DNA from: Thermoanaerobaculia bacterium
GTDB taxonomy: Bacteria; Acidobacteriota; Thermoanaerobaculia; UBA5066
Direction: 5' to 3'
Assembly (NCBI GenBank): GCA_963816185.1
Contig: CAWFJJ010000025.1
Location: 544,001-608,000, forward strand
Length of the DNA stretch: 64,000 nucleotides
A program made the translations under genes and the position numbers. Shown here piece after piece: positions 1 through 38,798 of this stretch. The notes beneath the pieces are model-generated. The model saw only the letters and a program-made list of their open reading frames with translations. It was not told where the DNA came from and made no database searches. Position 1 is the stretch's first letter. The number at the start of each line of letters is the position of its first letter.

Positions 1-1648
1 TCTCGGTCGAGTTGGAGAAGAGCCAGAGGGGGAAGCCCGGCTCGTCGGGCGGGACGGGCGGCATCTCGTGGACGAGCTTCATCTTGCCGGACGCGGTGGG
101 AAACTTGCGATCTTCGAAGAGGACCTTTTCGACGAGAGGGTTGCGGACGGATTCGCGCTCGAGTCTTGCTGCGGTCAGGCCGAGCGGCGCGACTCGTGCG
201 AGCAGCCGCTCTTTCCAATCCCGGGCCGTCCCTCTTACCTTCTCAGAAATCTTCTCTTCTCTTTCTCCGGTTCTTTCGTCGATGGCCTTCGCGAGCGCCT
301 GGACGATCTCGAGATCCGACAAAACGCCCTGGGGCGGCGCGAGCGCGGGAGTCGAGGCCCCGAGCCAGTGGTTACCGTAGGCGCCGAGGAGGTCGTCGTC
401 TTCCACGAGCGTCGTCGTGGGGAGGACGAAGTGCGCGCGGCGGCCCGTGTCCGTCAGGAACGGATCCACGACGACGACCAGCTCTCGCGTCTCGAGAGCG
501 CGTGCCACCGTTCCCGACTCCGGCAGCATCGCGACGGGGTTCCCTGCGGTGACCCAGACCGCGCGGACGGGCGGGTCCTTCGCCTCGAGAATGCCCGGGC
601 CGAGAAGCGGCTCGGAGATCGTGCGGGGCGGATTCTTCTTCAGAAACGACGTGTCGAACGCGCCGCGCCTCTTGAAGTAGAACGACACGCCGCCGCCGGA
701 GATACCGATGTTCCCGCTGACTCCCGAGAGCGCGTCGAGCGCCCGCACGATGCCCGAGCCGTTCATCCGCCGGCCCATCCCCCAACCCACCTGGATCGAG
801 CAGGGTTTCCCCGCGAGCGCCGAGGCGACGGCCGAGACGTCCTCGATGCTCACGTCGGCGGCACGCGCCCAGGCGCCGGGGGAGCGCGACGAGGCCAGCG
901 CCCGGAACTTCTCGAAGCCGTCGCAATAAGAGGGCGCGTCCAGGTCCACCTGCCCGCGCTCGAAGAGGAGCGCGGCGGCCCCCATCGCGAGATCGAAGTC
1001 GCCGCCGGGGCGGACGAGGATCGTCCGGTCGGCGATCTTCGCGCCCTTGTGTCGAACGGGGTCGATGAGGAGGATCCGCGTCCCCGCCTTCTTCGCCTTC
1101 TGGAGGAGAGGCAGGATGTGGATGTTCGAGACGTTCGGGTTCTTGCCCCAGAGGAGGATGTTCTTCGAGCTCAGGATGTCGAAGAGATCGTGCGACTCCT
1201 CTTCGCCGAAGTCGGTCGTCTGCGCCGCGTCGCCGCCGCCTGAGCAGATGTCTCCTCGCTTGACCGTGACCGGCCCGAACAGCTCCCAGAAATAATCCAC
1301 CACGGACTTGAGGAGTCCGAGCGATCCGCCCGACCGGTAGTGGAGGATCGCGGCCGGTCCGGATTCCTTCCGGATCGCGAGCAAGAGGTCGGCGATCGTG
1401 CCGAGCGCTTCGTCCCACGTCACCTCGGCGAAATCCTTCCCGCGGCGCATGAGCGGCTTCGTGAGACGCTCCTTCGAGTTCTGCATCTCGGGAAAATTCG
1501 ACGTGCGAGTGCAGATGAAGCCCTGCGTGACCGGATGGTCCGGATCGCCTCCGAGGGAGACGAGCCTTCCGTCCTCGACGGTTGCGATCAGGCCGCACGC
1601 GTCGGGGCAGTCCCGGTTGCAGACAGTCCGGAGAGTCTCGATCGCCAT
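1..1648 (-). CDS. Molybdopterin-dependent oxidoreductase (bis-MGD family), 3' end outside window
   Basis: Manual translation from ATG 1648 (SD GGAG): MAIETLRTVCNRDCPDACG...DPDHPVTQGFIC (4Fe-4S motif), LWGKNP, VTAGNP, VVVDPFLTDTGRRAHFVLP. Open to the window edge, so absent from the ORF track. Confidence 0.9.
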   Translation of the reverse strand, partial: MAIETLRTVCNRDCPDACGLIATVEDGRLVSLGGDPDHPVTQGFICTRTSNFPEMQNSKERLTKPLMRRGKDFAEVTWDEALGTIADLLLAIRKESGPAAILHYRSGGSLGLLKSVVDYFWELFGPVTVKRGDICSGGGDAAQTTDFGEEESHDLFDILSSKNILLWGKNPNVSNIHILPLLQKAKKAGTRILLIDPVRHKGAKIADRTILVRPGGDFDLAMGAAALLFERGQVDLDAPSYCDGFEKFRALASSRSPGAWARAADVSIEDVSAVASALAGKPCSIQVGWGMGRRMNGSGIVRALDALSGVSGNIGISGGGVSFYFKRRGAFDTSFLKKNPPRTISEPLLGPGILEAKDPPVRAVWVTAGNPVAMLPESGTVARALETRELVVVVDPFLTDTGRRAHFVLPTTTLVEDDDLLGAYGNHWLGASTPALAPPQGVLSDLEIVQALAKAIDERTGEREEKISEKVRGTARDWKERLLARVAPLGLTAARLERESVRNPLVEKVLFEDRKFPTASGKMKLVHEMPPVPPDEPGFPLWLFSNSTE

Positions 1649-1651
1649 CTC

Positions 1652-2329
1652 CTACCCCAAGTGCGTGCGGAAGTGGGCGACGGTCCTCTGCCAGGCGTCC
1701 TTCGCGCACTCCTCCCGGTAGATGCCGGGGCGCGTGTCGTTGAAGAAGGCGTGCGGTGCGCCGCGGAAGATGATCGTCTCCACTTTCTTTCCGAGCGCCT
1801 TGAGCTTGTCCTCGAGCGGCTTCGCATCCGACGCGGGGACGCTCTCGTCCATCTCGCCGTAGATCAGGAGGATCGGGCCGGAGAGGTTCTCCCAGCGGAT
1901 TTGCACTTTTTTGAAGCCGCCGTAGAAGCTGACGGCGGCGCCCACGCTCGGGTTCGAGGTGGCGGCGTATTGCGCGAGCGCGCCGCCCACGCAGAAGCCC
2001 ACGACGCCGAAGGCCTTCGACGCGCACTCCGGCCGGTTCAGGAGATACGCGCCCGCCGCCGCGATCTCGCGGCCCGCGCGCTCGACGTCCATCTCCATCA
2101 GGAGACGCCCGGCCTCGTCCGGCGAGGTCGTCGTTTTGCCGTGATAGAGATCGGGTGCGAACGCGACGAAGCCTTCTTTCGCGAAACGGTCCGTGACATC
2201 CTGGATGTGCGGCACCAGGCCCCACCACTCCTGGATCACGACGACGGCCTGCCCCTTGCCCGACGCGGGCTTCGCGAACCACCCCTCGCCCTTCTGGCCG
2301 TTGACGGTGAAGGAGACCTTCTCGCCCAT
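1652..2329 (-). CDS. Dienelactone hydrolase family protein
   Basis: QEWWGL, APDLY, GFCVGG nucleophile, GAPHAFFND motifs. Confidence 0.92.
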   Translation of the reverse strand: MGEKVSFTVNGQKGEGWFAKPASGKGQAVVVIQEWWGLVPHIQDVTDRFAKEGFVAFAPDLYHGKTTTSPDEAGRLLMEMDVERAGREIAAAGAYLLNRPECASKAFGVVGFCVGGALAQYAATSNPSVGAAVSFYGGFKKVQIRWENLSGPILLIYGEMDESVPASDAKPLEDKLKALGKKVETIIFRGAPHAFFNDTRPGIYREECAKDAWQRTVAHFRTHLG

Positions 2330-2399
2330 GTGTGCGCCCTCCTGATCGACTTGCCCGCCTCATTCTCTCCCAGGTTCCCGCGCCCTATACTCGCCCTTC

Positions 2400-4172
2400 G
2401 TGCGCCGGATTCTCGCCCTCGTGGTCGTCCTCGCCGTGGCGGCCGGCGCCGTGGCGTGCAGCCTTCTCCTGAACGGAGAGAGCTCCCGGAGGAAGGACGT
2501 CACGGGCTCCCTGTTCACGGATGTCACGAAAGAGTCCGGAGTGCGCTTTCGGTTTCACGGCGACCTCATCGACGCCAAGCTGATCCCCACGATGGGCGGC
2601 GGCGCGGCGCTCGCGGACTTCGACGGAGACGGGAACCTCGATCTCGTCCTCGTCCAGCAAGTGAAGAGCGCCACGAAATGGCGGAAGGCGGGACGGACGC
2701 AGCCCCTGGCCGAGTGCACGCGCCTCTTCCGGAACCGCGGAGACGGGACGTTCGAGGACGTGACGGAGAGATCCGGCGTTGTCGCCTGCGGATGGGGCAT
2801 CACGGCGATGTGGGCCGACCTCGACAACGACGGCTTCCCGGACCTCGTCATCGGCAATGCCGGCGAGCAGAACCTCGTCTTCCGCAACAAGGGCGACGGG
2901 ACGTTCGAGAGGATGGAGAAGACGGGCCTCGAAGGCGGCAAGTTCACGGTCGGGCTTGCCGCCCTCGACATCGACGGGGACGGGCTCCCGGACGTCTACA
3001 TCGGGAACTACCTCGAGACGGACCCCGACCGCGAATCCAAAGCCAAGCCCACGTCCTTCATGACGCCCGACGAGTACAAGGGGCAGGACAACCAGATGCT
3101 GAGAAACCTCGGCGGCTGGAAATTCGCCGACGTGACCGACGCGAGCGGCACGAGGGATCCGGGCAGCAAGACGATCGGAGCCGTCGCGCTCGACTACGAC
3201 GGCGACGGAAGAACCGATCTTTACGTCTCGAACGACCAGTGGCGCAACACGCTCTTCCACAACGAGGGCGGCGGCCGGTTCCAGGACGTGTCGGACGAGA
3301 CGGGCACGGGCTATCCCGAGGAAGGCAGCACGACCGCTTTTGGGCGGAGGACGCGCAGCGGCATGGGGCTCGTCGCGGCGGACCTCGACGGCGACGGCCG
3401 GCCCGACCTCTACGTGACGAACTACGCGAACGAGCCGAACACCCTTTATCGAAACGTCGAGGGTGCGACGTTCGCGGAGAGCGAGGTCGAGGCGTTCGGG
3501 GGCGACCGCGATCCGGTCCTCCCGCTCTCGAAGTGGGGCGTCACGGCGCTCGACTTCGACAACGACGGCAGGGACGATCTCGCGGTCTCGAGCGGCCAGA
3601 TCCTCTCCCGCTTCTTCACGGTCCTTGCGGGGTGGTTCAATCCGGCGGGTCGGAACTTCGCCGTGGGCGAGAAGAGCTACGCGCAGCGGCAGTTCCTTTT
3701 CCGCAACGAAAGCGCGCCCGGGGCGATCAAGTTTCGCGACGTCTCGGCCCAGTCCGGCGACCTCGGCCGTCTGTGCGTGGTCGGGCGCGGGCTCTCGGCC
3801 GGCGACCTCGACGGCGACGGGAAAGAAGACCTCGTCTTTAACCCGATCGACGTGGCGGCCGTCGTCCTCCGCAACACGGCGCCGGGCGGGCGCGCACTGG
3901 AGATCCTGCCGGCCGTGGGCGCGGACCGCAGGACGGTCCTCGGGACGAAAATCACGGTCGGGGGGCGCGCGAAGGAGTTCTACGTCGTGCCGTCCTACGC
4001 GAGCGGTTCATGGTTGCCGCTTCACTTTGGGCTGGGAGAGGCGACCTCGGCGCGTGTGGCCGTACGGTGGCCGGACGGAACGGCGCAGGATCTCGGCGAG
4101 CTTCCCGCCGGCGCGTACAAGCTCGTGAAGGGCCTGGCGCCCGCCCCTCTCCGCGCGAAGCCGATGAAGTGA
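2400..4172 (+). CDS. CRTAC1-family FG-GAP repeat / ASPIC-UnbV exported protein
   Basis: N-terminal hydrophobic segment, repeated DFDGDGxxDL and FRNxGDGTFEDV motifs, C-terminal HFGLG...VRWPDG. Confidence 0.88.
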   Translation: MRRILALVVVLAVAAGAVACSLLLNGESSRRKDVTGSLFTDVTKESGVRFRFHGDLIDAKLIPTMGGGAALADFDGDGNLDLVLVQQVKSATKWRKAGRTQPLAECTRLFRNRGDGTFEDVTERSGVVACGWGITAMWADLDNDGFPDLVIGNAGEQNLVFRNKGDGTFERMEKTGLEGGKFTVGLAALDIDGDGLPDVYIGNYLETDPDRESKAKPTSFMTPDEYKGQDNQMLRNLGGWKFADVTDASGTRDPGSKTIGAVALDYDGDGRTDLYVSNDQWRNTLFHNEGGGRFQDVSDETGTGYPEEGSTTAFGRRTRSGMGLVAADLDGDGRPDLYVTNYANEPNTLYRNVEGATFAESEVEAFGGDRDPVLPLSKWGVTALDFDNDGRDDLAVSSGQILSRFFTVLAGWFNPAGRNFAVGEKSYAQRQFLFRNESAPGAIKFRDVSAQSGDLGRLCVVGRGLSAGDLDGDGKEDLVFNPIDVAAVVLRNTAPGGRALEILPAVGADRRTVLGTKITVGGRAKEFYVVPSYASGSWLPLHFGLGEATSARVAVRWPDGTAQDLGELPAGAYKLVKGLAPAPLRAKPMK

Positions 4173-4187
4173 CGTTTCTCGAGCGGT

Positions 4188-4287
4188 GAAGGGGGCAGGG
4201 GGAAACGCGACCGTGTTTCCCCCATCACTCGCAGTCGCTGTAGCCCCCCTTCCTCGGTCAGACCGCGCAGCGGTTGGGGCTACAGCG
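4188..4287. terminator. Nested inverted repeats between convergent genes (bidirectional terminator or REP-like element)
   Basis: GGGGGAAAC 4198-4206 / GTTTCCCCC 4215-4223; CGCTGTAGCCCC 4236-4247 / GGGGCTACAGCG 4276-4287. Confidence 0.45.
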
Positions 4288-5188
4288 GCGTCACGTTGAC
4301 GTCTTCGCGCCGCGCGGCCGCCTCGGCCGCGGCCACGCTGATCGCATCGACGCCGTCCGCGCTCTTCAGGCTGCCGCGCGACATGCCGAAGGCCGCGAGG
4401 AGGTGACGCGGCGGCGCAAAGTCGAGGTCGGGCTCGTTCACGAAGAGGCGTCCGAGATTCTCGACGTAGGCCGACGTCAGCTCCTTCCAGGAGATCCGGT
4501 CGAACTCCTGCGCCACTTTTCGGCTTCCGAGGGACAGGAGGACGAGCGAGTGGAAGACCATCTGGTAGATGGCCTTCAGGCGCGCGCGGCTTCTCTCGGG
4601 GTGGTGCTTCAGGATCTCGCGGATGAAGTGCACGTTGAGCGGCACGTGGAACGACTCGTCCCGCGTGAGAATCGTGAGCACCTGCCGCGCGAGAGGCTGT
4701 TTCACACGCCGGAGCGACAGCCGGTACGTCGTGGCGCCGATCGTCTCGAACATGAGGTTCGTCAGCATGATCGATTCCATGCGCTCGGCCTTCGCGTAGG
4801 TCCTGTAGAACGAGCTGACCATCCAGCCCATCTCGGTCACGGCGCCGCCGATGTGCGCGAGGAACTCGTCGAGGAGCTCGCGGTGCCAGCCCTCCTCGTT
4901 GCCGTAGAGCACGAGGCACTCGGCGAGGTCGGGATCCCACGCCCGGACTTCCTCGGCGAGCCTGTGCGCGCCGGCCTTCCCCGACTCCTCGGCGCGATAC
5001 GCCGCGTTGAAGAAGCTGATGCAGGCGAGGCGCTCTTCCTCGGACTCGAACGCGACGGGTTTCGACAGGTCGAGGCGCTCGCCGTACATCCTCTCGGCGC
5101 GTTTCTTGAGCGTCTCGAGCCACCAGGCCGTCGGGCGCTGCGTCGGGATGCCGATGAGGGTGGAAACGGAGCCTTTCGCGAGCATCAC
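4280..5188 (-). CDS. Ferritin-like di-iron domain protein
   Basis: Carboxylate/ExxH pattern: AEES, NEEGWH, FETIG, RDESFH; helical protein. Confidence 0.75.
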   Translation of the reverse strand: MMLAKGSVSTLIGIPTQRPTAWWLETLKKRAERMYGERLDLSKPVAFESEEERLACISFFNAAYRAEESGKAGAHRLAEEVRAWDPDLAECLVLYGNEEGWHRELLDEFLAHIGGAVTEMGWMVSSFYRTYAKAERMESIMLTNLMFETIGATTYRLSLRRVKQPLARQVLTILTRDESFHVPLNVHFIREILKHHPERSRARLKAIYQMVFHSLVLLSLGSRKVAQEFDRISWKELTSAYVENLGRLFVNEPDLDFAPPRHLLAAFGMSRGSLKSADGVDAISVAAAEAAARREDVNVTPL

Positions 5189-5248
5189 CGCGCGGGATGA
5201 TGCCGAAACCGCAACCGCGTCGTCAAACGGGGGAGGACCGCCCCAGCG

Positions 5249-5659
5249 TCAATGCGGCTCGACCCGGAGGTGGCCGGTGAGAACCTCGCGGCCGGGCACG
5301 AGCCGAATCTCGATGCGGAAGTCCTCGCCGGAAGAAGAGAGCCCGGGCAGGGTGAAGAAGAGGGGGAGGTTGAATCCCCGCCCGGGCTCCAGGCGGGTGG
5401 GATAGGCGAGCATCCGGCACTGGCGTGTCTGCCGGGAGCGCTCGCGGCCCTCCGAGTCGAGGAGGACCATCTCGAGGAGGGGACCCGCTTCCGTGGATCC
5501 CTCCCACGCTTGAAGGGTCTTGTTCCGGATTTCGAGGTGAAGGAGGACCTTGCCGGGCTCCGTCGCGCTCGGCACGACGACCGGCTGCGGCGCATGGAGC
5601 ATCAACGACAGCGTGACGTCGCCAGCCGGCTCTTCCTTCGGCAAGCTACTTCTCAGCAT
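5249..5659 (-). CDS. Hypothetical beta-sandwich protein, possibly BsuPI-like proteinase inhibitor
   Basis: SD AAGGAG upstream; LEIRN...VLLDSEGRE...LEPG pattern resembles BsuPI (family assignment is inference). Confidence 0.55.
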   Translation of the reverse strand: MLRSSLPKEEPAGDVTLSLMLHAPQPVVVPSATEPGKVLLHLEIRNKTLQAWEGSTEAGPLLEMVLLDSEGRERSRQTRQCRMLAYPTRLEPGRGFNLPLFFTLPGLSSSGEDFRIEIRLVPGREVLTGHLRVEPH

Positions 5660-5737
5660 GTCGGTGCTCCTTTCGAGCGAAACATTCCCCAGACGCCCCT
5701 TTGGCGTAGCTGGTTCGACAAACTATCCGTGGGCGTG

Positions 5738-5893
5738 TCAGCCGATGGGTCCGACGCTCGCCCCGATGGGTCCGACGCTTGCTCCGATGGGTCCGACGCT
5801 CGCTCCCGTTCCGCGATCGATATCGCGGGAACGCGCGAATCCGCCGAATTCGAAACCGGAGAAGACGTCAAAAAACGCAAAAAGAAACGCCAT
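5738..5893 (-). CDS. Small 51-aa precursor-like peptide MAFLFAFFDVFSGFEFGGFARSRDIDRGT(GASVGPI)x3G
   Basis: AGGAGG SD at 5898-5903 before ATG 5893; three identical heptapeptides ending at the TGA stop; differences between repeats are synonymous. Confidence 0.65.
   Translation of the reverse strand: MAFLFAFFDVFSGFEFGGFARSRDIDRGTGASVGPIGASVGPIGASVGPIG
5742..5804. repeat. Three tandem 21-bp repeats
   Basis: CCGATGGGTCCGACGCT(C/T)GC(C/T) x3, no spacers. Confidence 0.95.
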
Positions 5894-5987
5894 ACGTCCT
5901 CCTACCCCGATCCGGACAGGTGTGTATTTCTCCTGCCCTTCACCTAGTAGGACAGGGGACACGGGCCGTTTTGACCCCCGACGCTCG

Positions 5988-6017
5988 AAAAAACATCGGC
6001 CGCCCGAAGGCGGCCGA
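5988..6017 (-). terminator. Rho-independent terminator after the TPR gene
   Basis: Minus strand TCGGCCGCC-TTCG-GGCGGCCGA followed by TGTTTTTT. Confidence 0.85.
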
Positions 6018-6046
6018 GTGAATTCGCGACAGATCGGTGGCTGTGT

Positions 6047-7309
6047 CTAGCCGACGAGCCTCAGCGGGCGGTACGCACGTTTAACGCCATTCTCTTCGTT
6101 CTGCAGGTACTCGCGGACGTGCGCGATGAGGTCCGCGTCGATCGTGCCCTGATCGAGGCAGACGAAGAGTTCACCGAGAGCCGGCGACGGGGAGAAGCGA
6201 GAGTCGCGTCGATCGCGACGAATGCCATCGACCTCGGCGGCCATGGCGTTCAAATTGCCGAGATGGCCGAGGCACTCGGCGACATGCAGTCGTGCGAACA
6301 GGACTTCCATCGGCGATCCTGTGATTTCAGCCTCGCGCGCGATTTCTGCGAAAGCGCGCAGCGCCTGCTGGTAGCGCTCGCGACGAAAATCGAGTTCGGC
6401 GAGACCGTTTCGTACGAAGAAAACCGTCGACGTGAAGCCATGCTTTCGAGCGAGATTCAACGCACGTGCGAAACCCGCGCGCGCCTCTTCGAATCTCTCG
6501 AGCCGGGCGAGAGCGTTTGCCCGATTGTTGAGAGTCATGGCCAGCGGCTGTGCATCACACTCGGGATCGAACGCCTTAATCGCACGATCGAGCCGGGAGA
6601 GAGCTCTCAGGTCGTCACCGCGCTGCAGGAAGAGAGTCCCGAGAGCTGCCTCCGCACGGGCCACGAGATGATCCTGCCCGAACTCCGCAAAGGACGAAAG
6701 TGCGCTCTTGAGCTTCTTCTCCGCCGAGCCGTAGTCCTTTGCGAACCCGGCCGCCTGACCTTCATAGTAGTCGCACAGAGCCTGGCCGAACCCGAGGTCT
6801 CCCGACTGCCGGAAGAACTCTCGGGCCGGCTCGATCGCCGCTCGTGCGGAATCGGCCTCGCCGACCTGCAAAAAGGCGTGAGACCTGAGGATCATCGCTT
6901 CGGCTTGGACCGCCTGTCTTGGCGCCGGCGTCGTGAGTCGGGAGTCGCGATTCACATCGAGAAGAGAGGATGCTTCCGCGAGAAGCTCATCTGCGAAATG
7001 AAGTGCGACCCTTGGATTCTCGGAAACGAGCGGCCCCGCCTTCTGTGCCGCGTACAGCAGAGCAAAGCCCCGGTAGGGCTTGCCGTCCAGCGAGCGGAGC
7101 GCGGCCGCGAGTTCGTCGGCGCCGGACCGGGCGGCATTCAGGATCAGCTCGGCGGGCTTCTCGGCGTCCTGTGAAAGCTGGTAAATCTCTTCCACGGAAA
7201 CGCGAGCGTTGGCTCTCACGAAGGGGAGCGTGCGGCCCATGGCCTCGCGCGGCAGCTCGGGCACGAGCTCGCTCTCGAGGATCGCGTCGAAGACGTCATC
7301 CTTCTTCAC
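6047..7309 (-). CDS. Tetratricopeptide-repeat protein (about 420 aa)
   Basis: TPR helices such as LAMTLNNRANALARLERFEEARAGFARAL; GTG 7309 overlaps the upstream TGA (GTGA); more A/T-rich than its flanks. Confidence 0.85.
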   Translation of the reverse strand: MKKDDVFDAILESELVPELPREAMGRTLPFVRANARVSVEEIYQLSQDAEKPAELILNAARSGADELAAALRSLDGKPYRGFALLYAAQKAGPLVSENPRVALHFADELLAEASSLLDVNRDSRLTTPAPRQAVQAEAMILRSHAFLQVGEADSARAAIEPAREFFRQSGDLGFGQALCDYYEGQAAGFAKDYGSAEKKLKSALSSFAEFGQDHLVARAEAALGTLFLQRGDDLRALSRLDRAIKAFDPECDAQPLAMTLNNRANALARLERFEEARAGFARALNLARKHGFTSTVFFVRNGLAELDFRRERYQQALRAFAEIAREAEITGSPMEVLFARLHVAECLGHLGNLNAMAAEVDGIRRDRRDSRFSPSPALGELFVCLDQGTIDADLIAHVREYLQNEENGVKRAYRPLRLVG

Positions 7310-7794
7310 GGTCTCAGCCTCACGAGTCCGGCACGGAGGCGGTCCCACAGCGTGCGCCGGAAGGCGCGCATCGGCGCGGTCCTGGGAGACGCGGGCGCGG
7401 TCTCGACGCGGACCTCGATCTCGCCCGATTCCGCGAGCCTGAGATCGCGCACGACGAACGCAGGCCCGGAATCCCCGATGCCGCGTCTCTCACGCGCCTG
7501 GAGAAGGTTGTTGCACTGATTCAGGAACGCCGCGCGCAAGTACGCCTTCGGGTCGCGCACGCGCGGGTTCATCGCGAGCACCTTGAGGAAGACGGTCTGC
7601 GCGGCTCCCTCGCATTCGTCCTGCGTGAGGCCGAACCGGATGACGCCGGCCGCGATGAGGCGGGGGCGGAACTTCGCGTTCAGCTCCTCCCAGTTCCAGA
7701 CGGGCCGCGCGGGGGCAGTGACCTCGACCGGCGCGAACCGGGCGCGCTGCCTTTGCACCTCGTCGGGCGGAATCTCTACGAAGTTCCGGGACAT
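7306..7794 (-). CDS. ECF sigma region-2-like protein lacking a recognisable region 4
   Basis: WEELNAKFRPRL...ECEGAAQTVFLKVL...KAYLRAAFLNQCNNLL fits the sigma-2 pattern; no canonical HTH follows. Confidence 0.65.
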   Translation of the reverse strand: MSRNFVEIPPDEVQRQRARFAPVEVTAPARPVWNWEELNAKFRPRLIAAGVIRFGLTQDECEGAAQTVFLKVLAMNPRVRDPKAYLRAAFLNQCNNLLQARERRGIGDSGPAFVVRDLRLAESGEIEVRVETAPASPRTAPMRAFRRTLWDRLRAGLVRLRP

Positions 7795-7920
7795 CTTTCC
7801 CCTTACGAGAAGAGCCCTTATATGCTACGCCCGCTTTCCGGCAGGGGTCAACCGGAACCTCGCAGACAACCCTAATTCAACGCTAACGTCAGACATCCGG
7901 AATCAGAGGGGTGGGCTCGC

Positions 7921-10674
7921 ATGGCGACTAAGAAGAAGGCTAAAGCAGCACCGAGGAAGCTCGTTTACTCGTTCGGAGCGGGAGCTGCCGAGGGAAGAGG
8001 CAGGCAGAAGGACCTGCTCGGCGGCAAAGGGGCGAACCTGGCCGAGATGGGGCGGCTTGGCCTGCCGGTGCCCCCCGGCTTCACCATCACGACCGAGGTC
8101 TGCACCTTCTTCTACGACAACAAGAAGAGCTACCCCAAGGGTTTGCGCAAGGAGGTCGCGACCCACCTGAAGGGGATCGAGAAGAAGCTCGGACGCACCT
8201 TCGGGGACCCGAAGAACCCGCTGACGGTGTCCGTTCGATCGGGCGCGCGGGCATCCATGCCGGGCATGATGGACACGATCCTGAACCTCGGCCTGAATGA
8301 CGAGACGGTCGAAGGTTTGGCGCAAGTCTCGAAGACCCCCCGCTTCGCCTGGGACTGCTACCGGCGGTTCGTGGCGATGTACGGAGACGTCGTTCTCGAG
8401 CTGAAACCGCTTGACAGGCACGAGCGGGACCCGTTCGAGGTCATCCTCGAGAAGAAAAAGAGCGCCTACAAGGTAAACCTCGACATGGAGCTCCCGGTGC
8501 AAGCCCTCCGGGAGCTCGTGCGCGAGTTCAAGGCCGAGATCAAGAAGCGTACCGGGAAGACCTTCCCGGACGATCCTCTCGAGCAGCTCTGGGGCGCGAT
8601 TGGCGCCGTGTTCGGCTCCTGGATGAACGACCGCGCGAAGGTCTACCGGCAGCTCAACGGAATTCCGGAGAGCTGGGGCACCGCGGTGACCGTCCAGTCG
8701 ATGGTGTTCGGCAATCTCGGCGGCGACTGCGGAACGGGCGTCGCGTTCACGCGCGACCCCGCGTCGGGGGAGAACGTCTTCTACGGCGAGTACCTGATCA
8801 ACGCGCAGGGCGAGGATGTCGTGGCCGGCGTGCGCACGCCGCAGAAGATCGCGACGCTCGGCAGGAAGATGCCGAAGGTCTACGCGGAACTGCTCGGCAT
8901 CCGGAAGACGCTCGAGGACCACTACGGCGACATGCAGGACATCGAGTTCACGGTGGAGGCCGGGAAGCTCTGGATGCTCCAGACGCGGACCGGCAAGCGC
9001 ACGGGCTTCGCGGAGGTGCGCATCGCCGTCGAGATGGTCGAGGAGAAGCGCATCACGCCCGAGCAGGCCGTCCTGCGCGTGAACCCCGACTCTCTGAACC
9101 AGCTTCTCAGGCCGATCTTCGATCCGGCCGCGAAGGCCGAGGCGATGGGCGCCGGCCAGTTTCTCGCGAAGGGTCTCAACGCCGGGCCGGGCGCCGCCAC
9201 GGGGCGCGCCGTCTTCACGGCGCTCGACGCCTTCGAGTGGGCCGAACGCGGCGAGAAGGTGCTCCTCGTACGCGAGGAGACGAGCCCCGAGGACATCAAA
9301 GGCATGAACGCGGCGGAGGGCGTCCTCACGGCGCGCGGCGGCATGACGTCTCACGCCGCGCTCGTCGCGAGGCAGATGGGCAAGGTGTGCATCGTGGGCT
9401 GCGAGACCCTGCGGATCGACGCGCAGCAGCGCCTCATGACGATCGCCTCGCCCGGCGCGAAAGAGCCGCGCATCGTCCACGAGGGCGACTGGCTCTCCAT
9501 CGACGGCTCGACGGGCGAGGTCATCGAGGGCCGCATCGGGACGAAGCCGTCCGAGGTCCTGCAGGTCATCCTCGACCGCTCCCTCGATCCGAAGAAGAGC
9601 GAGGTCTACCGGCGCTACGCGACGCTCATGAAGTGGGCGGACAAGGCTCGGCGCCTGAAGGTGCGCGCGAACGCCGACCAGCCGGACCAGGCCACGAACG
9701 CCGTCGCGTTCGGGGCCGAAGGCATCGGCCTCTGCCGCACGGAGCACATGTTCTTCGGCGGCGAGCGCATCACGGCGATGCGCGAGATGATCCTCGCGGA
9801 CAAGACCGAGGACCGCGAGCGTGCGCTCGACAAGATCCTCCCCATGCAGCGCGAGGACTTCGTCGGCCTGTTCCGCGCGATGGGGCCGCGCCCGGTGACG
9901 ATCCGGACGCTCGACCCGCCGCTCCACGAGTTCCTTCCGCACGGCGAGAAGGAGCGCGAGAGCGTGGCGCGCCAGGCCGGCGTCGACCCGCGCACCGTGG
10001 CGCGCAAGGTGGCCGAGCTGCACGAGATGAACCCGATGCTCGGGCACCGCGGCTGCCGCTTGGGCATCTCGTTTCCCGAGATCACCCGCATGCAGACGCG
10101 CGCGATCCTCGAGGCCGCGTGCCGCGTCAAGAAGGAAGGCATCGACGTGAGGCCCGAGATCATGATTCCACTCGTCGGCCACGTGAACGAGCTGGCCGAC
10201 CAGGCGAAGATCGTGCGCGACACCGCGAAGAAAGTCTTCGAGGCGGAAGGGATCAAGGTGAGCTTCCTTCTCGGCACGATGATCGAGCTGCCGCGCGCGG
10301 CGGTCACGGCGGACGAGATCGCTCGGGAGGCCGAGTTCTTCAGCTTCGGGACGAACGACCTCACGCAGACGACGTTCGGGCTCTCGCGGGACGACGCGGG
10401 CAAGTTCCTGCCCGAGTACGTGCGGCGCGAGATCCTGCCCGCCGATCCCTTCGAGAGGCTCGACCAGATCGGCGTCGGCAAGCTCATGAAGATGGCCGTC
10501 GAGCTGGGGCGCTCGACGCGCCCGGATATGCACCTCGGGATTTGCGGCGAGCACGGCGGCGACCCGTCCAGCGTGGAGTTCTGTCACCGCATCGGCCTCG
10601 ACTACGTGTCCTGCTCGCCGTTTCGCATCCCGATCGCCCGGCTGGCCGCGGCGCAGGCGGCGCTGAGGAAGTGA
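7921..10674 (+). CDS. ppdK: Pyruvate, phosphate dikinase
   Basis: [26 protein letters not shown] phospho-His motif, [10 protein letters not shown]; 917 aa. Confidence 0.98.
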
Positions 10675-12140
10675 GCCGCAGAGGCCGCCACCACCGCTCC
10701 GATCTCGCCGACATCGCGCGCCGCGCGATGCAGGAGAAAGGGCTCAACCCCGACTTCCCGAAGGATGCGCTCGTCCAGCTCGGGAAGATCGAGGAGCCCG
10801 CGCGTGAGAAGGATCCCGCGATCCGCGACCAGCGCGACCTCCTCTGGGCCTCCATCGACAACGACGACAGCCGCGACCTCGACCAGCTTTCCGTCGCCGA
10901 GGAGCTCGCCGGCGGCGCCGTGAGGGTACTCGTCGCGATCGCGGACGTCGACGCGCTCGTCGGGAAGGGAACTCCGCTGGATGGGCGGGCCGCACAGAAC
11001 ACGACGTCGGTCTACACGGCCGGCGGGGTCTTCCCCATGCTTCCCGAGAAGCTCTCGACGGACCTCACGTCGCTGAACCAGGACGAGGACCGGCTCTCCG
11101 TCGTCATCGAGTACGTCGTGAACGCGGACGGGACGCTCGGCGATTCCAACGTCTATCGCTCCCTCGTACGCAACAAGGCGAAGCTCGCCTACGACTCGGT
11201 GGACGCGTGGCGCGACGGCCGCGGAGAGATGCCGGCCGCGATGGCGAAGGTTCCGGGGGTCGACGCACAGATCCGGCTTCAGGAGGACGTTTCGCAGCGC
11301 CTCCGCCACCTGCGTTACGCGCACGGCGCGCTCGACCTCCAGACGATCGAGGCGCGAGCCGTCTTCGACGGTGAGGAGATTCGCGACCTGACGGTCGACG
11401 AGCAGAACCAGCCGAGGCAGCTCATCGAGGACTTCATGATCGCCGCGAACGGCGTGACGGCCCGCTATCTCGAGGACGCGGGCTTCGCCGCTCTCAGGCG
11501 CGTCGTGAAATCCCCGGAGAGGTGGCAGCGCATCGTCTCCGTCGCCGCCGAGCACGGCTTCTCGCTCCCTCCGGAGCCGGACTCGAAGGCGCTGGAGGCT
11601 TTTCTCGCGGCGCGCCGCAAGGCCGACCCTCTGCGCTTTCCGGATCTCTCACTCGTCATCGTGAAGCTCATGGGCTCCGGCGAGTACGTCGTCGAGCTGC
11701 CCGGGAAGGAGCCGGTCGGCCACTTCGGCCTCGCCGTGCGCGACTACACGCACTCCACGGCGCCGAACCGCCGCTACCCGGACGTGATCACGCAGCGTCT
11801 TCTCAAGGCGGCGCTCGCGCATCGCCCGACGCCCTATTCGGCGTCCGATCTGAACGGCCTCGCCGTTCGCTGCACCGAGCAGGAGGACGCCGCGAACAAA
11901 GTCGAACGCCTCGTGCGCAAATCCGCGGCCGCGCTGCTCCTCGAGACGCGCATCGGCGAGCACTTCGACGGAGTCGTGACGGGTGCGTCGGAGAAGGGCA
12001 CCTGGGTGCGCATCTTCCGGCCGCCCGTCGAAGGCAAGGTCGTCCGCGGCGAAGCGGGCCTCGAGGTCGGGAACAAGGTGCGCGTCAAGCTCGTGTCGAC
12101 GAACGTCGAGCGCGGCTACATCGACTTCGTCAGGGCGTGA
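10671..12140 (+). CDS. RNB-domain ribonuclease (RNase II/R family) with C-terminal S1
   Basis: [33 protein letters not shown]; GTG overlaps the ppdK stop. Confidence 0.92.
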
Positions 12141-13017
12141 CGCCCGTCAGGAAACGGATCAGGAGCTCGTTGACCCGCTGGGGCGCGTCGGCCTGCACCC
12201 AGTGACTCGCGTCCGCGATCCGCTCGACCGTCAGGCGCGGCACCCAGCGGTCGAGGCCCTCGAGGAGGCCAGGGCCGAGGTAGCGGTCGCGCTCGCCCCA
12301 GACGAGGAGCGTTCGGAGGTCTTCCGGCCACGTGCGGCCGCGGACCCGCGGCGGAAACCGGAAGGCCGCCCGGTAGTAGTTCACGGCGGCCGTGAGCGCG
12401 CCGGGCCGGGCGAGGGCTTCCTTGTACAGGCGGATGTCCTCGTCCGTAAAGGCTCCCGGCGACACGGGATCGCGCCGGAGCATCCTCTCGAGCACCGCGA
12501 AGTTCCCGGCGCGGATTCGCCGCTCCGGAAGCCAAGGGAGCTGGAAGAAGAAGACGTACGAGGACTTCCTCCGCTGCGCGGGGTTCGTCCGCAGCTCGCG
12601 TCGGAAGGCGAGCGGATGCGGCGCATTGAGCAGGGTCAGCGAGAGCAGTCGCTCGGGATGGAAAAGCGGTGCGAACCACGCGAGGACGCCGCCCCAGTCG
12701 TGCCCGACGACGTGGGCCTTCGCGTTCGCTCCGCCGCCGAGCTGGTCGATCAGGCCCTCCAGGTCCGCGAGGAGGGTCTCGATACGGTACGCGGAGACAC
12801 CTCGCGGCGTGTCCGAGAAGTTGTAGCCGCGGAGGTCGGGCGCCACGGCGCGGAAGCCCGCGGCCGCGAGCGCGGGGACCTGGTGGCGCCACGCGTACCA
12901 GAACTCGGGGAAGCCGTGGAGGAGAATGACGAGCGGCCCTTCGCCCTGCTCGACCCAGTGCAGGCGGATCCCGTTGACCCGGCCCTCGACGTGACGGAGA
13001 GGCGAGGCCGCGTTCAC
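12130..13017 (-). CDS. Alpha/beta hydrolase (epoxide hydrolase-like)
   Basis: LLHGFPEFWY, APDLRGYN, GHDWGG, ASHWVQ; GTG overlaps the upstream stop. Confidence 0.92.
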   Translation of the reverse strand: MNAASPLRHVEGRVNGIRLHWVEQGEGPLVILLHGFPEFWYAWRHQVPALAAAGFRAVAPDLRGYNFSDTPRGVSAYRIETLLADLEGLIDQLGGGANAKAHVVGHDWGGVLAWFAPLFHPERLLSLTLLNAPHPLAFRRELRTNPAQRRKSSYVFFFQLPWLPERRIRAGNFAVLERMLRRDPVSPGAFTDEDIRLYKEALARPGALTAAVNYYRAAFRFPPRVRGRTWPEDLRTLLVWGERDRYLGPGLLEGLDRWVPRLTVERIADASHWVQADAPQRVNELLIRFLTGVTP

Positions 13018-16000
13018 CGGTTGGAATGGGCGACGAAGCTCCCGTCGTTCGTGGCGCCGCTCTGCGGCGTCGGTCCGTCGTTGACGACGCCGTACGCGTA
13101 GAGCGCGCTCGAGCCTCCCGTGCGGAGGACGTGGACGTAGCCGTTCGCGACCCCATAGGACGTGAGGATGGGCGAGAACTGGAACCACCCGCCGACGGGA
13201 AGGTTCTGGACCTTGGAGCTGCCCGCCAGCTTTCCCGTGTCGCCGTTGTAGACGTCCACGCGGTAGGCGTCCGTCACGTTGACGTTCCCGAAGTTCACGA
13301 CGGCGAGGTTCGAGCGGTTCGTCGCGTTCTGCTGGAGGCCGTACACCCAGGCCTCGCCCGAGGCGGCTTCGGACACCTGCGTCGCGCGGTAGAAGAGACC
13401 GTACTGGCCACCGCCCGCGGCGGGCGCCCCCGTCCGTGCCCCGACGAACAGCCACGCGAGACCGCCGTTGCGCATGGCGCTGATCTGGAGCGCCCCGGCG
13501 TAGGAACCGGCCCCCTTGGCGCCGATCGCGACGCCTTTGCCCCGCAGGTAGTCGAGGGCGTTGGGGATGATCTTCTGCTCGTACGGCTGGAGGCTCTCCA
13601 TGGCGACGCCGCCCGCGCCGCCCGCCGGGCTCAGCGACTCCACGTACGTCATCGTGATGGTGATCGGCTCGGCGTACGGGCTTCCGAGAACGAGCTCGCT
13701 CTGGAACGTCCCCGTCTCCACGAGGACCGACAGGGTCTGGGGATTTCCCGGACTGAGCGGCATCGGGGGAACGAAGGACCCGTCCGACGTGACGTTGTCG
13801 TTGAAGACGGCGTACGTGTAGAACGGTCCGGGCCCATCGACGAGCTCGACCGTCGCCCAGCCGTCGGCATAGCCGGCCGAAGACAGGACGTGACCGATCT
13901 GCGTCCACTGGCCAGGCCCGAGGACGACGTTCGGGAGGACCATGGAGCGTCCGTCGGCGCCCGCGTGGAGAGTCACCCGGAGCGTGATCGGGATCGCCGC
14001 GTTCATGTTCACGAGGGCGAGGTTGCTCCGGTCGGCGGCATTCTCGCGGAGGCCGAAGAGGTACACGGGCGACGTGAAGGCGTCGTCGAGCCTCACACCG
14101 GGATACGCGAGTCCCGCGCGCCCGCCCGCGGAGGGCGCCGTCGTCCGCGCGCCCGCGAAGGCGACGGAATCCGATGACAGACCCTCGAACGTGACGAAGA
14201 GCGCCCCGCCCTGATTCGAGTCTGACGGGATCGTCAGGCCCTTCGTCCTCAAGTACGCGAGCGTATCCGGGATAATGATCTGTCGCCCCGCCGGGAGCGT
14301 CTCGCTCACGGTCCCGCTCCCGGAGGCGCCGAGCGAGGTCGCCGCGACGTACGTCATCTGCAGTGTGGCCGTCGTCGTGCCCCGGTTCGCGAGCGTCAGC
14401 TCCGACGAGAACCGCGCGCGCCGCCCACGCCCGAGACGTCGAGGACGATGGGGACGACCTTCGTGACCGCGCTGCCCGCGATCGCGGGGGCGACCGTGAC
14501 CGACTGCGTCTTCGTGTTCTCTCCGGCGGCGTTCGTCACCGTGAGCGAGACCTGGTATTGGCCCGCGGCGGCGAACGTGTGCGTCGGGTACGGCACCGCC
14601 GACACGCCCCCGTCGCCGAAGGTCCACGACCAGGACGTCGGGTTGCCGGTCGAGAGGTCCGTGAAGCCGAATGGCTGCCCGGCGACCGGAATCCCGGCCC
14701 ACGTGAAGTCCGCCAGCGCGGGCGGCGTCGGGAAGCGGTAGACGCCCCGTGCGCTCGTGCCGACGTAGAGCGTCGCGGATCCCGGCGCGATCGCGAAGGC
14801 GTTCACGAAAGCGTTCCCGAGCCCGGCGTTGAAAGGCGTCCAGCTCGTCCCGTGGTCCGTGCTCCTGAAGAGACCGACGATCGTGCCGGCGTAGAACGTC
14901 GAGGCGGACGCGGGATCGAACTTCAGGGCGGTGATCGTCGTCGACGGCAGGCCGTTCGTGACCGGTGCCCAGCCCACGCCGCCGTCGGCCGATCGAAACA
15001 GGCCCCCGTCCGTACCCGCCCACATGGTCGAAGAGGAGCTCGGGTCCATGGTCAGCGCGTAGACGACCCGGGTCGCCAGGGCGTTGTTCGTGACCCACTC
15101 CAGTCCGCCGTCCTTGTGGACGCGGATCCCGTAGACGCCTGAGTCCGTCCCGGCGACCGCGGTCGCGCCGGGCGCGGGGACGACGATGCTCTCGAAGACG
15201 GGGAGCGGGGCGGGCGAGCCGCCGTAACCCGCCCAAGTGGCGCCGGCGTCGGTGCTCTTCCACGCGAGTCCCTGCGCCGGGGTTGTGGGGGCTTCGGGCG
15301 TGCCGACCCCCCCGGCGGCATAGACGGTCGTCGGCGATCCGGGGTCCGACGCCCACGCGTAGACGATGGCGATGGTGTCGATGTGCGTCCATGTCGCGCC
15401 GCCGTCGGTGCTCCTCCAGCCCCCGTCGCCCATTCCGGCGAGAATCGTCGAAGAGCCCGGGAGGATTGCGAGACAGAAAACGTTGGCGACGTTCGGGCTG
15501 ACCGTGACGGACGTCCACGTCACGCCGGCGTCCACGCTCTTGTATAGGCCGACGTCGGTGCCCGCGTAGACAGTCGCGGGTGCCGTGGGATCGACGGCGA
15601 GCGACAGGATCCTGACCGACGTCAGGCCCCTGTTCGAGGCCTGGGCGTTCACGCCCGCGTTCGTGCTCCTGAAGACGCCGTTCGCCGCCCCGATGTAGAC
15701 ATTCGAGGGCGTCACGGGGTCGACCGCAAGGGCATTGATGACCTGTTGCGGGAAGCCGCCGGTCACCCGGCTCAGGGTCGCGGCCCCGTCGAGACTCTTC
15801 GCGACCTGCACCGCGTTGGCGCAGGCATAGACCGTGGTGGGCGTGACGGGGTCGATGGCCAGAGCGAAGCCGGTCCCCTTGAAAGCGGCGGCATTCCAGG
15901 TCGCCGCGCCGTCGGTGCTCTTGAAGACGCCGCCTCCGTTCGTCCCGGCATAGAGGGTCGAAGGCGTTTTCGGGTCAATCGCGATCGCGAAGACCCTCGT

Positions 16001-16684
16001 CTGGGTCAACCCGTTCGAGGCCGCCGTCCAGGTCGCGGCCCCGTCCGAGGTCCGGAAGACGCCGTTGTCCCTCGTACCCGCATAGAGAGTCGAGGGCGAG
16101 ACCGAATTGATCGCCAGGGCGAAAACCTGCACGGTCCCGAGGCCGGCGCTCGCGGCGGTCCAGCTCGCCGCGCCGTCCGTGCTCTTGAAGACCCCGCTGT
16201 CCGTCCCTGCATAGAGTGTGGATGGCGTCCCGGGGTCGATCGCAAAGACCCAGATCCGGTTCGTCGTCAGGCCGGCCGCCGCCCAGCTCGTCCCGCCGTC
16301 GGTGCTCCTCCAGACGCCGTGATTCCTCGTGCCCGCATACACGGTCGTGCTCGTGATCGGATCGATCGCGAGAGAGAGAACGGCATCCCCCGGCAAGCCG
16401 GTACCGGCAACCGCCCAGCTCGCCCCGCCGTTCGTCGTCTTGAAGACGCCGCCGCCGCCCGCGCTGCTGAACTTGAAGGCCCCGTGGCCGGTGCCCGCGT
16501 AGATCGTCGCCGGCGCGCGCGGATCGATGGCCAGGGCGAACACATTCCCCCCGGTCGGTCCGACGCTGCTCCACACGTCCACGTCGCCGCGGGCAACGCC
16601 CGCGAGAAGAAAGAGGGCCGCAAAAGTGGGGATAGAGACGAACCGGTGGGTGAGAAGGCAACGCAGCCTAACGAGCACGATCAT
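13014..16684 (-). CDS. Large exported BNR/Asp-box beta-propeller + PKD + C-terminal beta-domain protein, with apparent frameshift near 14415
   Basis: Signal-like N-terminus, many 'YAGT..GVFKSTDGGASW' repeats, PKD WSWTFGDG. Reading continues in another frame (FSSELTLANRG...) after a (CG)4 tract. Start codon uncertain. Confidence 0.8.
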
Positions 16685-16741
16685 GTCGTCGATCGCTCCG
16701 GGAAACGCGCGATTGCGCGGCATCATATCGTGCGCGGGGGG

Positions 16742-17980: not shown

Positions 17981-18016
17981 TCCTGCCGGTCCGGCAGATT
18001 CCGAAGATAATCTCTT

Positions 18017-20629: not shown

Positions 20630-20633
20630 AGGC

Positions 20634-36810: not shown

Positions 36811-36816
36811 GGGAAG

Positions 36817-36843
36817 GACGAGGAGGATTTCTTAGAAGGGAAT
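36817..36843 (+). repeat. TTCTTAGAA motif between proB and proA
   Basis: GAGGAGGATTTCTTAGAAGGGAA. Confidence 0.75.
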
Positions 36844-38148: not shown

Positions 38149-38174
38149 AGGAGTGATCGGGAGCAGTCACTCGT

Positions 38175-38561: not shown

Positions 38562-38564
38562 CGC

Positions 38565-38798
38565 TCAGAGGCCCCAAGCCTTCAGGTCGGTCTTGGAAAG
38601 CGGCTTGAAGAACGCGGCCGACACGCGGGCGCGGCCGCGATAAGCGCCGAAACGGCGCGCCGGTTTGCCCACCCTGACCGGCACCAGCCGGACGGCCGGG
38701 ACCCTTCCTCGGGCGATGACGACCTCTTCGCCGGCCTCGGCCTTCTCGATGAGGCGCGAAAGATGCGTCTTGGCGGTGTGAACCGTGACGGTCTTCAT
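38565..38798 (-). CDS. Phd/YefM family antitoxin
   Basis: AKTHLSRLIEKAEAGEEVVIAR; directly upstream of vapC; TTAGCTAA palindrome at 38822-38829 is a possible operator. Confidence 0.9.
   Translation of the reverse strand: MKTVTVHTAKTHLSRLIEKAEAGEEVVIARGRVPAVRLVPVRVGKPARRFGAYRGRARVSAAFFKPLSKTDLKAWGL

Follow-up and report, generated by a model that had tools for sequence, protein, structure and literature searches.

A small gene ending in three heptapeptide units is a member of a sigma-like/TPR gene module in Thermoanaerobaculia and a candidate multi-copy signalling pro-peptide

We analyzed a stretch of 64,000 nucleotides from a Thermoanaerobaculia bacterium of the phylum Acidobacteriota (GenBank assembly GCA_963816185.1, contig CAWFJJ010000025.1, positions 544,001 to 608,000), hereafter called the window. 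It contains a short tandem repeat within a small gene, which lies in a 390-bp gap between the terminator-like hairpin of a TPR gene on one side and the start of the gene m136 (5659) on the other. The features of this locus are as follows.

4280..5188, minus strand: m302, a ferritin-like di-iron protein of 302 aa with a weak AurF match (E 0.004), a variable cargo
5249..5659, minus strand: m136, a protein of 136 aa belonging to no family, the cargo of the window's module type
5693..5707, minus strand: short hairpin in the gap from the small gene to m136, conserved when the long-form loci are aligned
5738..5893, minus strand: small gene of 51 codons plus stop (ATG at 5893, stop at 5740..5738), from the open reading frame and its translation
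5741..5803, minus strand: three 21-nt units (5803..5783, 5782..5762 and 5761..5741), each reading ASVGPIG, from Tandem Repeats Finder
5804..5893, minus strand: N-terminal segment and linker of the small gene (codons 1–30), the first ~12 residues conserved and hydrophobic, the linker variable
5898..5902, minus strand: ribosome-binding site GGAGG, 4 nt before the ATG of the small gene, read from the sequence
5951..5978, minus strand: motif resembling a promoter (GGGGTCAAA and TGTC, 15 nt apart) that precedes the small gene and is conserved in the intergenic alignment
5986..6017, minus strand: intrinsic-terminator-like hairpin with a T run at the end of the TPR transcript, conserved in relatives
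6047..7348, minus strand: TPR protein of 433 aa from GTG 7348 (420 aa in the public gene call, start 7309)
7306..7794, minus strand: ECF-sigma-like protein of 162 aa; its overlap with the TPR gene is 43 nt, or 4 nt if the 420-aa start is used

Tandem Repeats Finder reported one array (5742..5808; period 21, 3.1 copies, 89% matches, score 111), and the heptad units correspond to codons 31–51 of the small gene, with the stop codon directly after the third unit. A preliminary description of this DNA had read the 21-bp repeat as probably encoding a repeated peptide, with the minus strand favoured, and had stated that its units differ only at wobble positions and that the array runs into a stop codon. 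The array, the reading frame and the relatives described below bear this out: compared codon by codon, the three units displayed four synonymous and no non-synonymous differences, and the four differing bases are third codon positions of Ala (GCG/GCA/GCG) and of the last Gly (GGA/GGG/GGC). The Phe-rich N-terminus with a Gly-Gly pair mentioned in that description is also found in the window (eight Phe among residues 1–19; Gly-Gly at residues 17–18), and rare TTT codons occur in this Phe-rich start. The gene is present as a 51-aa call (P0266) in the protein collection. The earlier caveat that synonymy leaves the antisense strand unsettled was correct as well; all three antisense frames of the small gene are open in the window, and the GC content at third codon positions is 0.63, compared with 0.85–0.93 in the neighbouring genes, so that the window alone cannot settle strand or coding. 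The strand was settled by the relatives.

We collected same-genus loci via the downstream di-iron gene. All relatives' loci containing m136 (10/10) had a small ORF at this position, whose ribosome-binding context (GGAGGAC), frame and N-terminus are conserved and whose stop directly follows the last unit. A DNA pattern composed of the upstream motif and the ribosome-binding site was run on 301 genomes sampled from the class. It matched 15 genomes, all belonging to the window's genus (that of the window and 14 of the 16 others), compared with one match for the reversed control, and a small ORF with a stop right after its last unit followed every pattern match (16/16). A profile of 12 long forms retrieved 68 public proteins of 40–56 aa, none of them named, with three units in 53, two in 12 and four in 3. 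In loci of the genus, the unit count ranged from one to four; single-unit forms of 17–21 aa occurred in other strains, and the family spans 17–56 aa. M1 and F3 were invariant in the alignment of the 12 long forms (A3), A6 and F11 were kept in at least 90%, and N-termini across the family read Met-Asp/Glu/Asn-Phe followed by a hydrophobic stretch. The unit sequence varies among strains, while its end is kept as Pro-Ile/Val-x (Pro-Ile-Gly/Ser/Asn in the window's type). Copy number and core sequence in relatives, the comparison suggested earlier, accordingly gave one to four units with the frame kept and cores that differ between strains.

We then compared adjacent units of the same gene in 12 genes, leaving out of the counts and of the trees below a 50-aa variant without the Pro-Ile-Gly end (G021) and a frame-shifted long-read assembly (L034) in which m136 and m302 are shifted as well. 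Synonymous differences amounted to 59.8 over 128.7 sites and non-synonymous differences to 11.2 over 333.3 sites (pS 0.465, pN 0.033, pN/pS 0.07). In the paralogous module type, synonymous differences between identical units were found in five of seven genes, and the antisense frames were broken in 6, 2 and 5 of 12 orthologues. These comparisons of related sequences demonstrate that the 51-codon small gene is a real gene and, because the units differ almost only synonymously, that purifying selection acts on every unit as a peptide. The unit copies are old as DNA and have been kept identical as peptide, which argues that every copy is used.

The product has a mean Kyte-Doolittle hydropathy of 2.18 over its first 11 residues and 1.42 over 19 residues, and inspection together with hydropathy revealed no Sec-type signal peptide in the small-gene products, whose start is acidic and contains no basic residues. 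Nine peptides of the family matched no family in Pfam or NCBIfam, Rfam returned only chance-level matches for 5500..6200 (E 0.14–0.91), and a search of the window's own genome with the peptide found the peptide itself and chance matches at E above 0.4. The proposal of a multi-core precursor stands in part. A conserved N-terminal part and selected C-terminal units are present, but the features taken to mark a leader are not conserved: neither the Gly-Gly pair nor the Phe-richness is kept in relatives, several single-unit forms having two to four Phe. A double-glycine leader was ruled out on the same alignment (A3).

The TPR gene has two further paralogues, and the genome holds three modules. 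Located via their TPR genes and not via a peptide search, the paralogous peptides complete a set in which each TPR gene (3/3) is followed 150–250 nt later by a small ORF with a similar C-terminus. On contig C28, the order is sigma-like gene, TPR gene and, about 190 nt later, a 43-aa ORF with two 8-residue units at its end, which shares the upstream motif and the ribosome-binding site; this module contains no enzyme gene, and only convergent, unrelated genes come after the peptide gene. On contig C5, a sigma-like gene, a TPR gene and a 37-aa ORF with a similar C-terminus are followed by a histidine kinase gene, an arrangement that recurs in two relatives. The genes downstream thus differ among the three modules (m136 and m302, only convergent genes, or a histidine kinase) while the linkage to the TPR/sigma pair is kept, which suggests that the partner of the peptide is this pair and not the downstream enzymes.

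With the C28 TPR protein as query, matches were obtained in 38 of 61 genomes of the window's family, with 2–6 per same-genus genome. Among the loci of this type with at least 300 nt after the TPR stop, 24 of 26 contained an ORF of 19–53 aa with one to three units and an end of Pro-Ile/Val-x-Gly or similar; the two others are an incomplete match and a distant locus. Units are separated by 2–4-residue spacers in some C28-type relatives. Short forms of this type are Cys-rich next to Ser/Thr. A search with the TPR alignment yielded 56 metagenome loci, 34 of which have at least 300 nt after the TPR stop, and 30 of these 34 carried a peptide ORF. Three exceptions (L184–L186) are orphan TPR genes without peptide, sigma gene or m136, and the fourth is an incomplete match. 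The TPR family is narrow: 7 of 301 phylum-wide genomes matched at E 1e-15, six of them from two families within the order of the window, with one of the seven (G025) adding a single weak match, and all named homologues of the TPR protein come from Thermoanaerobaculia or Acidobacteriota. On these comparisons, the small gene is the third member of a lineage-restricted module consisting of an ECF-sigma-like protein, a soluble TPR protein and a small peptide. The novelty lies in this sigma-TPR-peptide module, of which we found no description in full-text searches of the literature or in the passages on TPR and Acidobacteria of the ECF classification.

The TPR protein matched Pfam TPR_12 (E 7e-12) and otherwise only generic TPR families. 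Its AlphaFold2 model is an all-helical superhelix (mean pLDDT 87.9), and no membrane segment was found in it (maximum hydropathy 0.98 over 19 residues). In Foldseek searches with this model, the top matches were the TPR domains of LGN/Pins and kinesin light chain (KLC), which have been solved with bound peptides; Rap proteins ranked below LGN and KLC (E 3e-5 to 1e-4), and Rap-pheromone complexes gave TM values of 0.46–0.56. The likeness of the model to Rap is one within a promiscuous fold and not homology. The central repeats are the most variable part of the protein, and residues 61–100 and 376–420 the most conserved. Complex prediction with the TPR protein (45-row alignment) and the 51-aa peptide (12-row alignment) gave scores of 0.34, 0.01 and 0.01 without controls, which speak neither for nor against binding. 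We propose, from gene order and sequence comparison, that the TPR protein is the cognate partner of the peptide.

The sigma-like protein of the window displayed weak matches to NCBIfam families of the sigma-70 type (best E 0.004) and none to Pfam. Its paralogue on C28 matched Sigma70_r2 (E 0.0014) and r4 (E 0.016), both below the cut-off. Only residues 35–105, a three-helix core, were confidently predicted by AlphaFold2; the C-terminal half of the window's copy is degenerate (pLDDT below 50), while the paralogues have a clearer region-4-like end. The best Foldseek matches were to region 2 of ECF sigma factors, at non-significant levels (E 0.17–1.4), and a profile of the sigma-like proteins found nothing significant in the PDB, with RpoE at E 0.49. 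The sequence and the model are thus weakly indicative of a sigma identity for the 162-aa protein.

We compared the rates at which the genes of the locus diverge. Across the same seven genomes, identity was 57–85% for the TPR protein, 77–98% for m136 and 81–96% for m302. Maximum-likelihood trees were built from 14 loci, excluding L023, L025 and L026, whose TPR genes lie in several frames. The TPR tree splits (support 100/99) into a clade in which all peptides have a single unit and a clade in which all have several, and its sub-clades match the unit types; the two loci whose rows conflict with the m136 tree (L017 and L108) both side with the peptide type. The median end-branch length was 0.15 for the TPR protein vs 0.028 for m136, and the TPR protein evolves about five times faster than m136. 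In a partial Mantel test on 23 loci, the correlation between TPR and unit distances given m136 was 0.51, a value reached by none of 5000 permutations, and the converse was –0.19; restricted to the 10 loci in which m136 shares 90% or more identity with the window's copy, the partial r was 0.52. Nucleotide identity between the window and two relatives was 87–96% through the flank, the di-iron gene and m136, and 87–92% in the 5΄ half of the sigma-like gene. It dropped to 59–69% in the stretch that runs from the middle of the TPR gene across the small gene, and it returned to 93–95% exactly where m136 starts. In the C28 type, the sigma-like protein was 87–98% identical across loci in which the TPR protein was 57–90% identical. 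These results demonstrate, at the level of sequence divergence, that the TPR gene and the peptide gene have diversified jointly, within a hypervariable island that has sharp boundaries. However, because the two genes are ~150 bp apart, a shared recombination history alone could produce much of this co-variation.

The motif GGGGTCAAA-15 nt-TGTC may act as a promoter. GGGGTCAAA alone has 12 matches in the genome, of which only three, those next to peptide modules, resemble one another, perhaps together with one on contig C6, and a sigma-70 promoter scan of 5200..6400 gave no sites. The terminator scan placed a stem of nine pairs (eight G-C) at 6017..5996 with a T-rich tail after it. We also searched sequencing runs, and none contained half of the sampled words (best share 0.42 for DNA libraries and 0.12–0.19 for RNA libraries). 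Contigs from all four RNA-library runs (4/4) covered m136 and stem from relatives (85–99% likeness). In one run (X17), 5850..6050 was also covered, and two contigs join about 5671/5697 to 5850/5914, skipping the variable part seen in the window; no contig in the four runs covered 5709..5843. Such contigs prove neither transcription, strand nor a single transcript.

The three identical copies and their evolution in step with the TPR gene point to an undescribed peptide signalling module in Gram-negative bacteria. We hypothesize that the small gene encodes a multi-copy pro-peptide, that its units are the cognate ligand of the adjacent TPR protein, and that the latter controls the sigma-like protein, which would amount to a Rap-Phr-like logic outside Bacillota; we give this reading roughly an even chance. 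The units, one to four per gene in relatives, would be freed as short peptides ending in Pro-Ile-Gly and would be bound by the neighbouring TPR protein. This protein would hold or control the sigma-like protein, as Rap proteins do their protein targets, and ligand binding would alter sigma activity. The sigma-like protein may recognize the promoter-like motif that precedes the peptide gene and its downstream cargo, which in the window comprises m136 and the di-iron protein; the motif would complete a feedback loop, besides driving the cargo. Such a scheme would involve proteolytic release, export and uptake of the peptide, its binding to the TPR protein, binding of the TPR protein to the sigma-like protein, and use of the promoter.

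A more specific form of this hypothesis would be a strain-specific pherotype pheromone system in Gram-negative soil Acidobacteria, with a leaderless pro-peptide carrying one to four heptapeptide copies, a Rap-like TPR protein as anti-sigma factor or co-activator of a divergent ECF sigma factor, and three to five insulated channels per genome. We put it forward tentatively, leaning slightly against it. Several observations speak against the signalling model: the products have no Sec signal, no exporter or processing protease is encoded in any module, AgrB-like proteins (PF04647) had no match in the genome (94.9% complete), the sigma assignment is weak, third-position GC is 0.63, and the TPR genes of L184–L186 are orphans. 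Opp-type binding proteins are present in the genome, although these are unspecific.

The small gene may instead encode an unprocessed intracellular protein that acts whole on the TPR/sigma pair, for example as an anti-anti-sigma or feedback element, with its units docking on successive TPR repeats. The missing signal peptide, exporter and protease would then be expected, the shortest forms are just 17–21 aa, the linkage to the TPR/sigma pair is equally tight, and the many repeats of the TPR superhelix could hold a periodic ligand. However, the TPR protein keeps a length of 429–433 aa whether the peptide has one, three or four units, and the 2–4-residue spacers between units in some relatives fit cutting better than docking. 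Moreover, hypervariability at the strain level within near-identical flanks would be expected of social or conflict loci, and not of a private loop. We consider this alternative unlikely.

In a second alternative, the product would be a RiPP precursor whose N-terminus is a leader and whose units, as cores, would be modified by m136 together with the di-iron protein, or else by enzymes from other loci, with the TPR/sigma pair being mere cluster regulators. In some lantibiotic clusters, expression depends on a dedicated ECF sigma/anti-sigma pair. The conserved N-terminus with a hypervariable C-terminus, the di-iron oxygenase-like gene and the gene of no family downstream in the window, and the Cys-rich short forms of the C28 type beside Ser/Thr are all compatible with such a precursor. 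However, a Pfam search of the 20 ORFs spanning 2..21884 found no protease, YcaO, radical SAM protein, lanthipeptide enzyme or peptidase-ABC exporter. Because no RiPP maturase lies within about 12 kb, the cyanobactin-type assignment made in the preliminary description is not supported; in addition, the units abut without recognition sequences, and the C28 module has no enzyme gene at all. m302, with invariant residues E68, E99/H102, E148 and E178/H181 in its alignment (A1) and no match in a PDB sequence search, was found in 14 of 24 other same-genus genomes, and in six genomes without it, m136, the peptide gene and the TPR gene are nonetheless present. Members of the di-iron family are common in Polyangia and occur there without m136, and m136 homologues were found in 14 of 80 loci, all in Acidobacteriota. 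m136 itself follows the small gene in all loci of the window's module type with enough sequence, and is 77–98% identical among genomes whose peptides differ completely; the co-varying partner of the peptide is the TPR protein. A RiPP precursor is accordingly quite improbable. As a lead only, a protein-atlas search matched m136 to BsuPI-like beta-sandwich proteins (score 0.92).

An antagonistic, bacteriocin-like peptide whose specific partner in immunity or sensing is the TPR protein would agree with the hypervariable island, its co-varying partner gene and the several paralogous modules per genome. Nevertheless, we give this possibility little credence, since there is no exporter, the peptides are very short and Gly/Pro-rich, and the TPR protein, besides being soluble, is linked to a sigma-like gene.

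The small gene might also encode a leader peptide that acts in cis, as an attenuator or arrest peptide, on the expression of m136 and the di-iron gene, with Phe codons or the terminal Pro-Ile-Gly-stop stalling ribosomes. It lies 78 nt upstream of m136 with the small conserved hairpin between them, the start of the window's copy is rich in Phe with its TTT codons, and the RNA-library contigs of relatives bridge the leader region of the small gene and m136. However, this is very improbable: the C28 type has no co-directional gene downstream and the C5 type precedes a different gene, and neither purifying selection on every unit nor a count of one to four units would be expected. The attenuator idea fails because Phe content is not conserved (two to four Phe in several single-unit forms) and modules without a downstream gene exist; we rejected a pheL-type amino-acid attenuator on these grounds and on the lack of an Rfam match. 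Finally, a non-coding DNA repeat, in which three 21-bp protein-binding sites two helical turns apart would lie 83–150 bp before the m136 start, has a negligible probability, as unit DNA is poorly conserved while the peptide is kept, and start, frame and stop are conserved in dozens of loci.

The multi-copy signal pro-peptide, which had been the second suggestion of the preliminary description, fits the data best, the peptide gene being always downstream of the gene for a fast-evolving, co-varying TPR protein. The host phylum comprises abundant, mostly uncultured soil bacteria, and the family offers a natural experiment with dozens of receptor-peptide pairs and one to four copies, each of them visibly selected. 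Although the organism is uncultured, synthetic heptapeptides and a pair of recombinant proteins would suffice to test the model. Should the signalling model prove wrong, the results would still add a family of small genes that are unannotated or called 'hypothetical', and a hypervariable island, to what is recorded for Thermoanaerobaculia.

Rap-Phr systems, as described in PMC11343458, have the pro-peptide gene next to that of the receptor; the mature peptide of 5–10 residues usually lies at the C-terminus, the Phr pro-peptides contain one to four copies, tandem duplicates included, and Rap acts by binding protein targets and not DNA. The module studied here resembles Rap-Phr/RRNPPA systems in that a small pro-peptide gene lies beside a gene for a soluble, putative TPR receptor (3/3 paralogues, 24/26 and 30/34 loci). 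The repeated part is C-terminal, as is the active part in Phr, with one to four copies in both; receptor and peptide diversify together, although linkage is a confounder here. In RRNPPA systems, mature peptides of 5–10 residues are released and re-imported by Opp, and the predicted units of 7–10 residues end at the stop codon here. In contrast to Phr pro-peptides of 50–120 aa with a signal peptide, those found here have 17–56 aa and no Sec signal, and the host is a Gram-negative Acidobacterium and not a member of Bacillota. No sequence relation was detected beyond generic TPR families, and the presumed target is an ECF-sigma-like protein.

The SHP-Rgg and ComS-ComR systems of streptococci use very short hydrophobic precursors without a classical signal peptide, whose active part is the C-terminal 7–9 residues. 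These peptides are sensed by a cytoplasmic TPR-type receptor encoded next door, and ComRS controls an alternative sigma factor. The leaderless short hydrophobic precursor and the TPR-type partner next door are points of likeness. However, the receptors of those systems carry a DNA-binding HTH domain, and a dedicated exporter and a membrane protease are known there, whereas none was identified here; we know of no tandem units in SHP or ComS precursors. In the agrBDC and comQXP loci, the pherotype island consists of the peptide gene and the specificity part of its partner between conserved flanks, and a sharply bounded island with a peptide gene, a partner and conserved flanks is likewise found at the window's locus. 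The difference from agr is that the window's module type has no AgrB, no AgrD family match and no membrane kinase receptor.

Cyanobactin precursors of the PatE type are processed by PatA/PatG-type subtilisin proteases, usually with a YcaO heterocyclase, and recognition sequences flank their cores. The two have in common a single precursor with a conserved N-terminal part ahead of several short repeats, but no PatA/PatG-type protease or heterocyclase was found nearby (20 ORFs, 2..21884), and the units here abut without flanking recognition sequences, the last one ending at the stop. Yeast alpha-factor is made from tandem identical peptide copies that pass through the eukaryotic secretory pathway and between which Kex2 cuts at dibasic spacers; the present family likewise has identical short peptides in tandem within one precursor, their number varying between genes, although the organisms and proteins are unrelated.

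Like the ECF sigma/anti-sigma pairs of PMC7826278, the module has a small sigma-like gene overlapping the gene of a presumed regulator and a conserved motif before the target, but the regulator is a soluble all-TPR protein and not a membrane anti-sigma factor. In the passages of that classification on TPR and Acidobacteria, TPRs form a C-terminal extension in ECF42 and are part of a FecR-like protein in ECF267, and these passages contain no ECF group with a separate TPR protein and a peptide gene (PMC7826278). Unmodified-peptide signalling via cytoplasmic TPR receptors is regarded, in the texts of PMC10075063 and PMC11343458, as a speciality of Bacillota and their phages; if the signalling model is true, the known range of peptide communication would be widened by a module that follows a Rap-Phr-like logic with unrelated components and is connected to a sigma factor.

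The hypervariable island, which comprises the TPR gene and the small peptide gene, is also distinct in composition. The GC content at third codon positions is 0.73 in the TPR gene (window 6047–7348) and 0.63 in the small gene (5738–5893), and ranges from 0.85 to 0.93 in all neighbouring genes. The sigma-like protein of the module is the following:

Window 7306–7794, minus strand: sigma-like protein, with its C-terminal half shortened and poorly modelled compared with its paralogues

The paralogues retain a helix-turn-helix resembling region 4. Despite the shortened C-terminal half, orthologues of the window's protein show approximately 80% conservation.

Aberrant forms of the small gene were also observed. 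In genome G021 (loci L026 and L115), the orthologue lacks the Pro-Ile-Gly end; this ORF of 50 aa runs into the start of m136, and the adjoining TPR gene is unusually divergent and split over two frames, which may reflect either joint decay or an assembly error. In one long-read MAG (L034, about 2799–2960), the small ORF is frame-shifted and three regular units lie in another frame. Because frame shifts also affect the di-iron gene and m136 on this contig, an assembly error is likely in this case. Among the short C28-type peptides (L121–L141; 19–21 aa), which carry a single unit, one to three Cys residues, often paired, immediately precede the terminal unit; these residues are mostly absent from the multi-unit forms.

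We also observed 'orphan' TPR paralogues. Two genomes that lack the di-iron gene carry a second TPR gene, which is convergent toward m136 (L107, 288–824; L108, 2262–3083). Four metagenome loci (L184–L187) contain a TPR relative without a sigma gene or m136, and no peptide gene was found beside this relative at any of the three loci having at least 300 nt downstream.

Elsewhere in the window's own genome, a third module, a second copy of the promoter-like motif on C28 and a similar motif on C6 were located as follows:

Contig C5, about 36109–39219, minus strand: third module, with sigma-like, TPR, peptide and histidine kinase genes
Contig C28, 179341, plus strand (also L098, 3218): second motif copy, ~140 nt 3΄ of the C28 peptide gene
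Contig C6, 3109, plus strand: similar motif, preceding a 112-aa Cys-rich protein

In the C5 module, a 193-aa sigma-like gene is followed by the TPR gene, which was matched in two pieces, a 37-aa peptide gene and the histidine kinase, which has one hydrophobic segment at the N-terminus. The second C28 copy is directed into convergent genes, with no obvious ORF downstream. The Cys-rich protein on C6 has a start resembling a signal peptide, and no TPR or sigma gene adjoins this motif.

The two cargo genes are as follows:

Window 4280–5188, minus strand: m302, ferritin-like protein of 302 aa, with invariant di-iron ligands E68, E99/H102, E148 and E178/H181
Window 5249–5659, minus strand: m136

The m302 family is large and unnamed (>1500 matches), and Sorangium and other Polyangia carry copies 60% identical to m302; no relative of known structure was found by sequence. 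For m136, no Pfam or NCBIfam family was found. With a score of 0.92, the protein atlas placed it near the beta-sandwich proteins of the BsuPI type ('intracellular proteinase inhibitor'); the cargo of the module would be a protease inhibitor if this placement is true.
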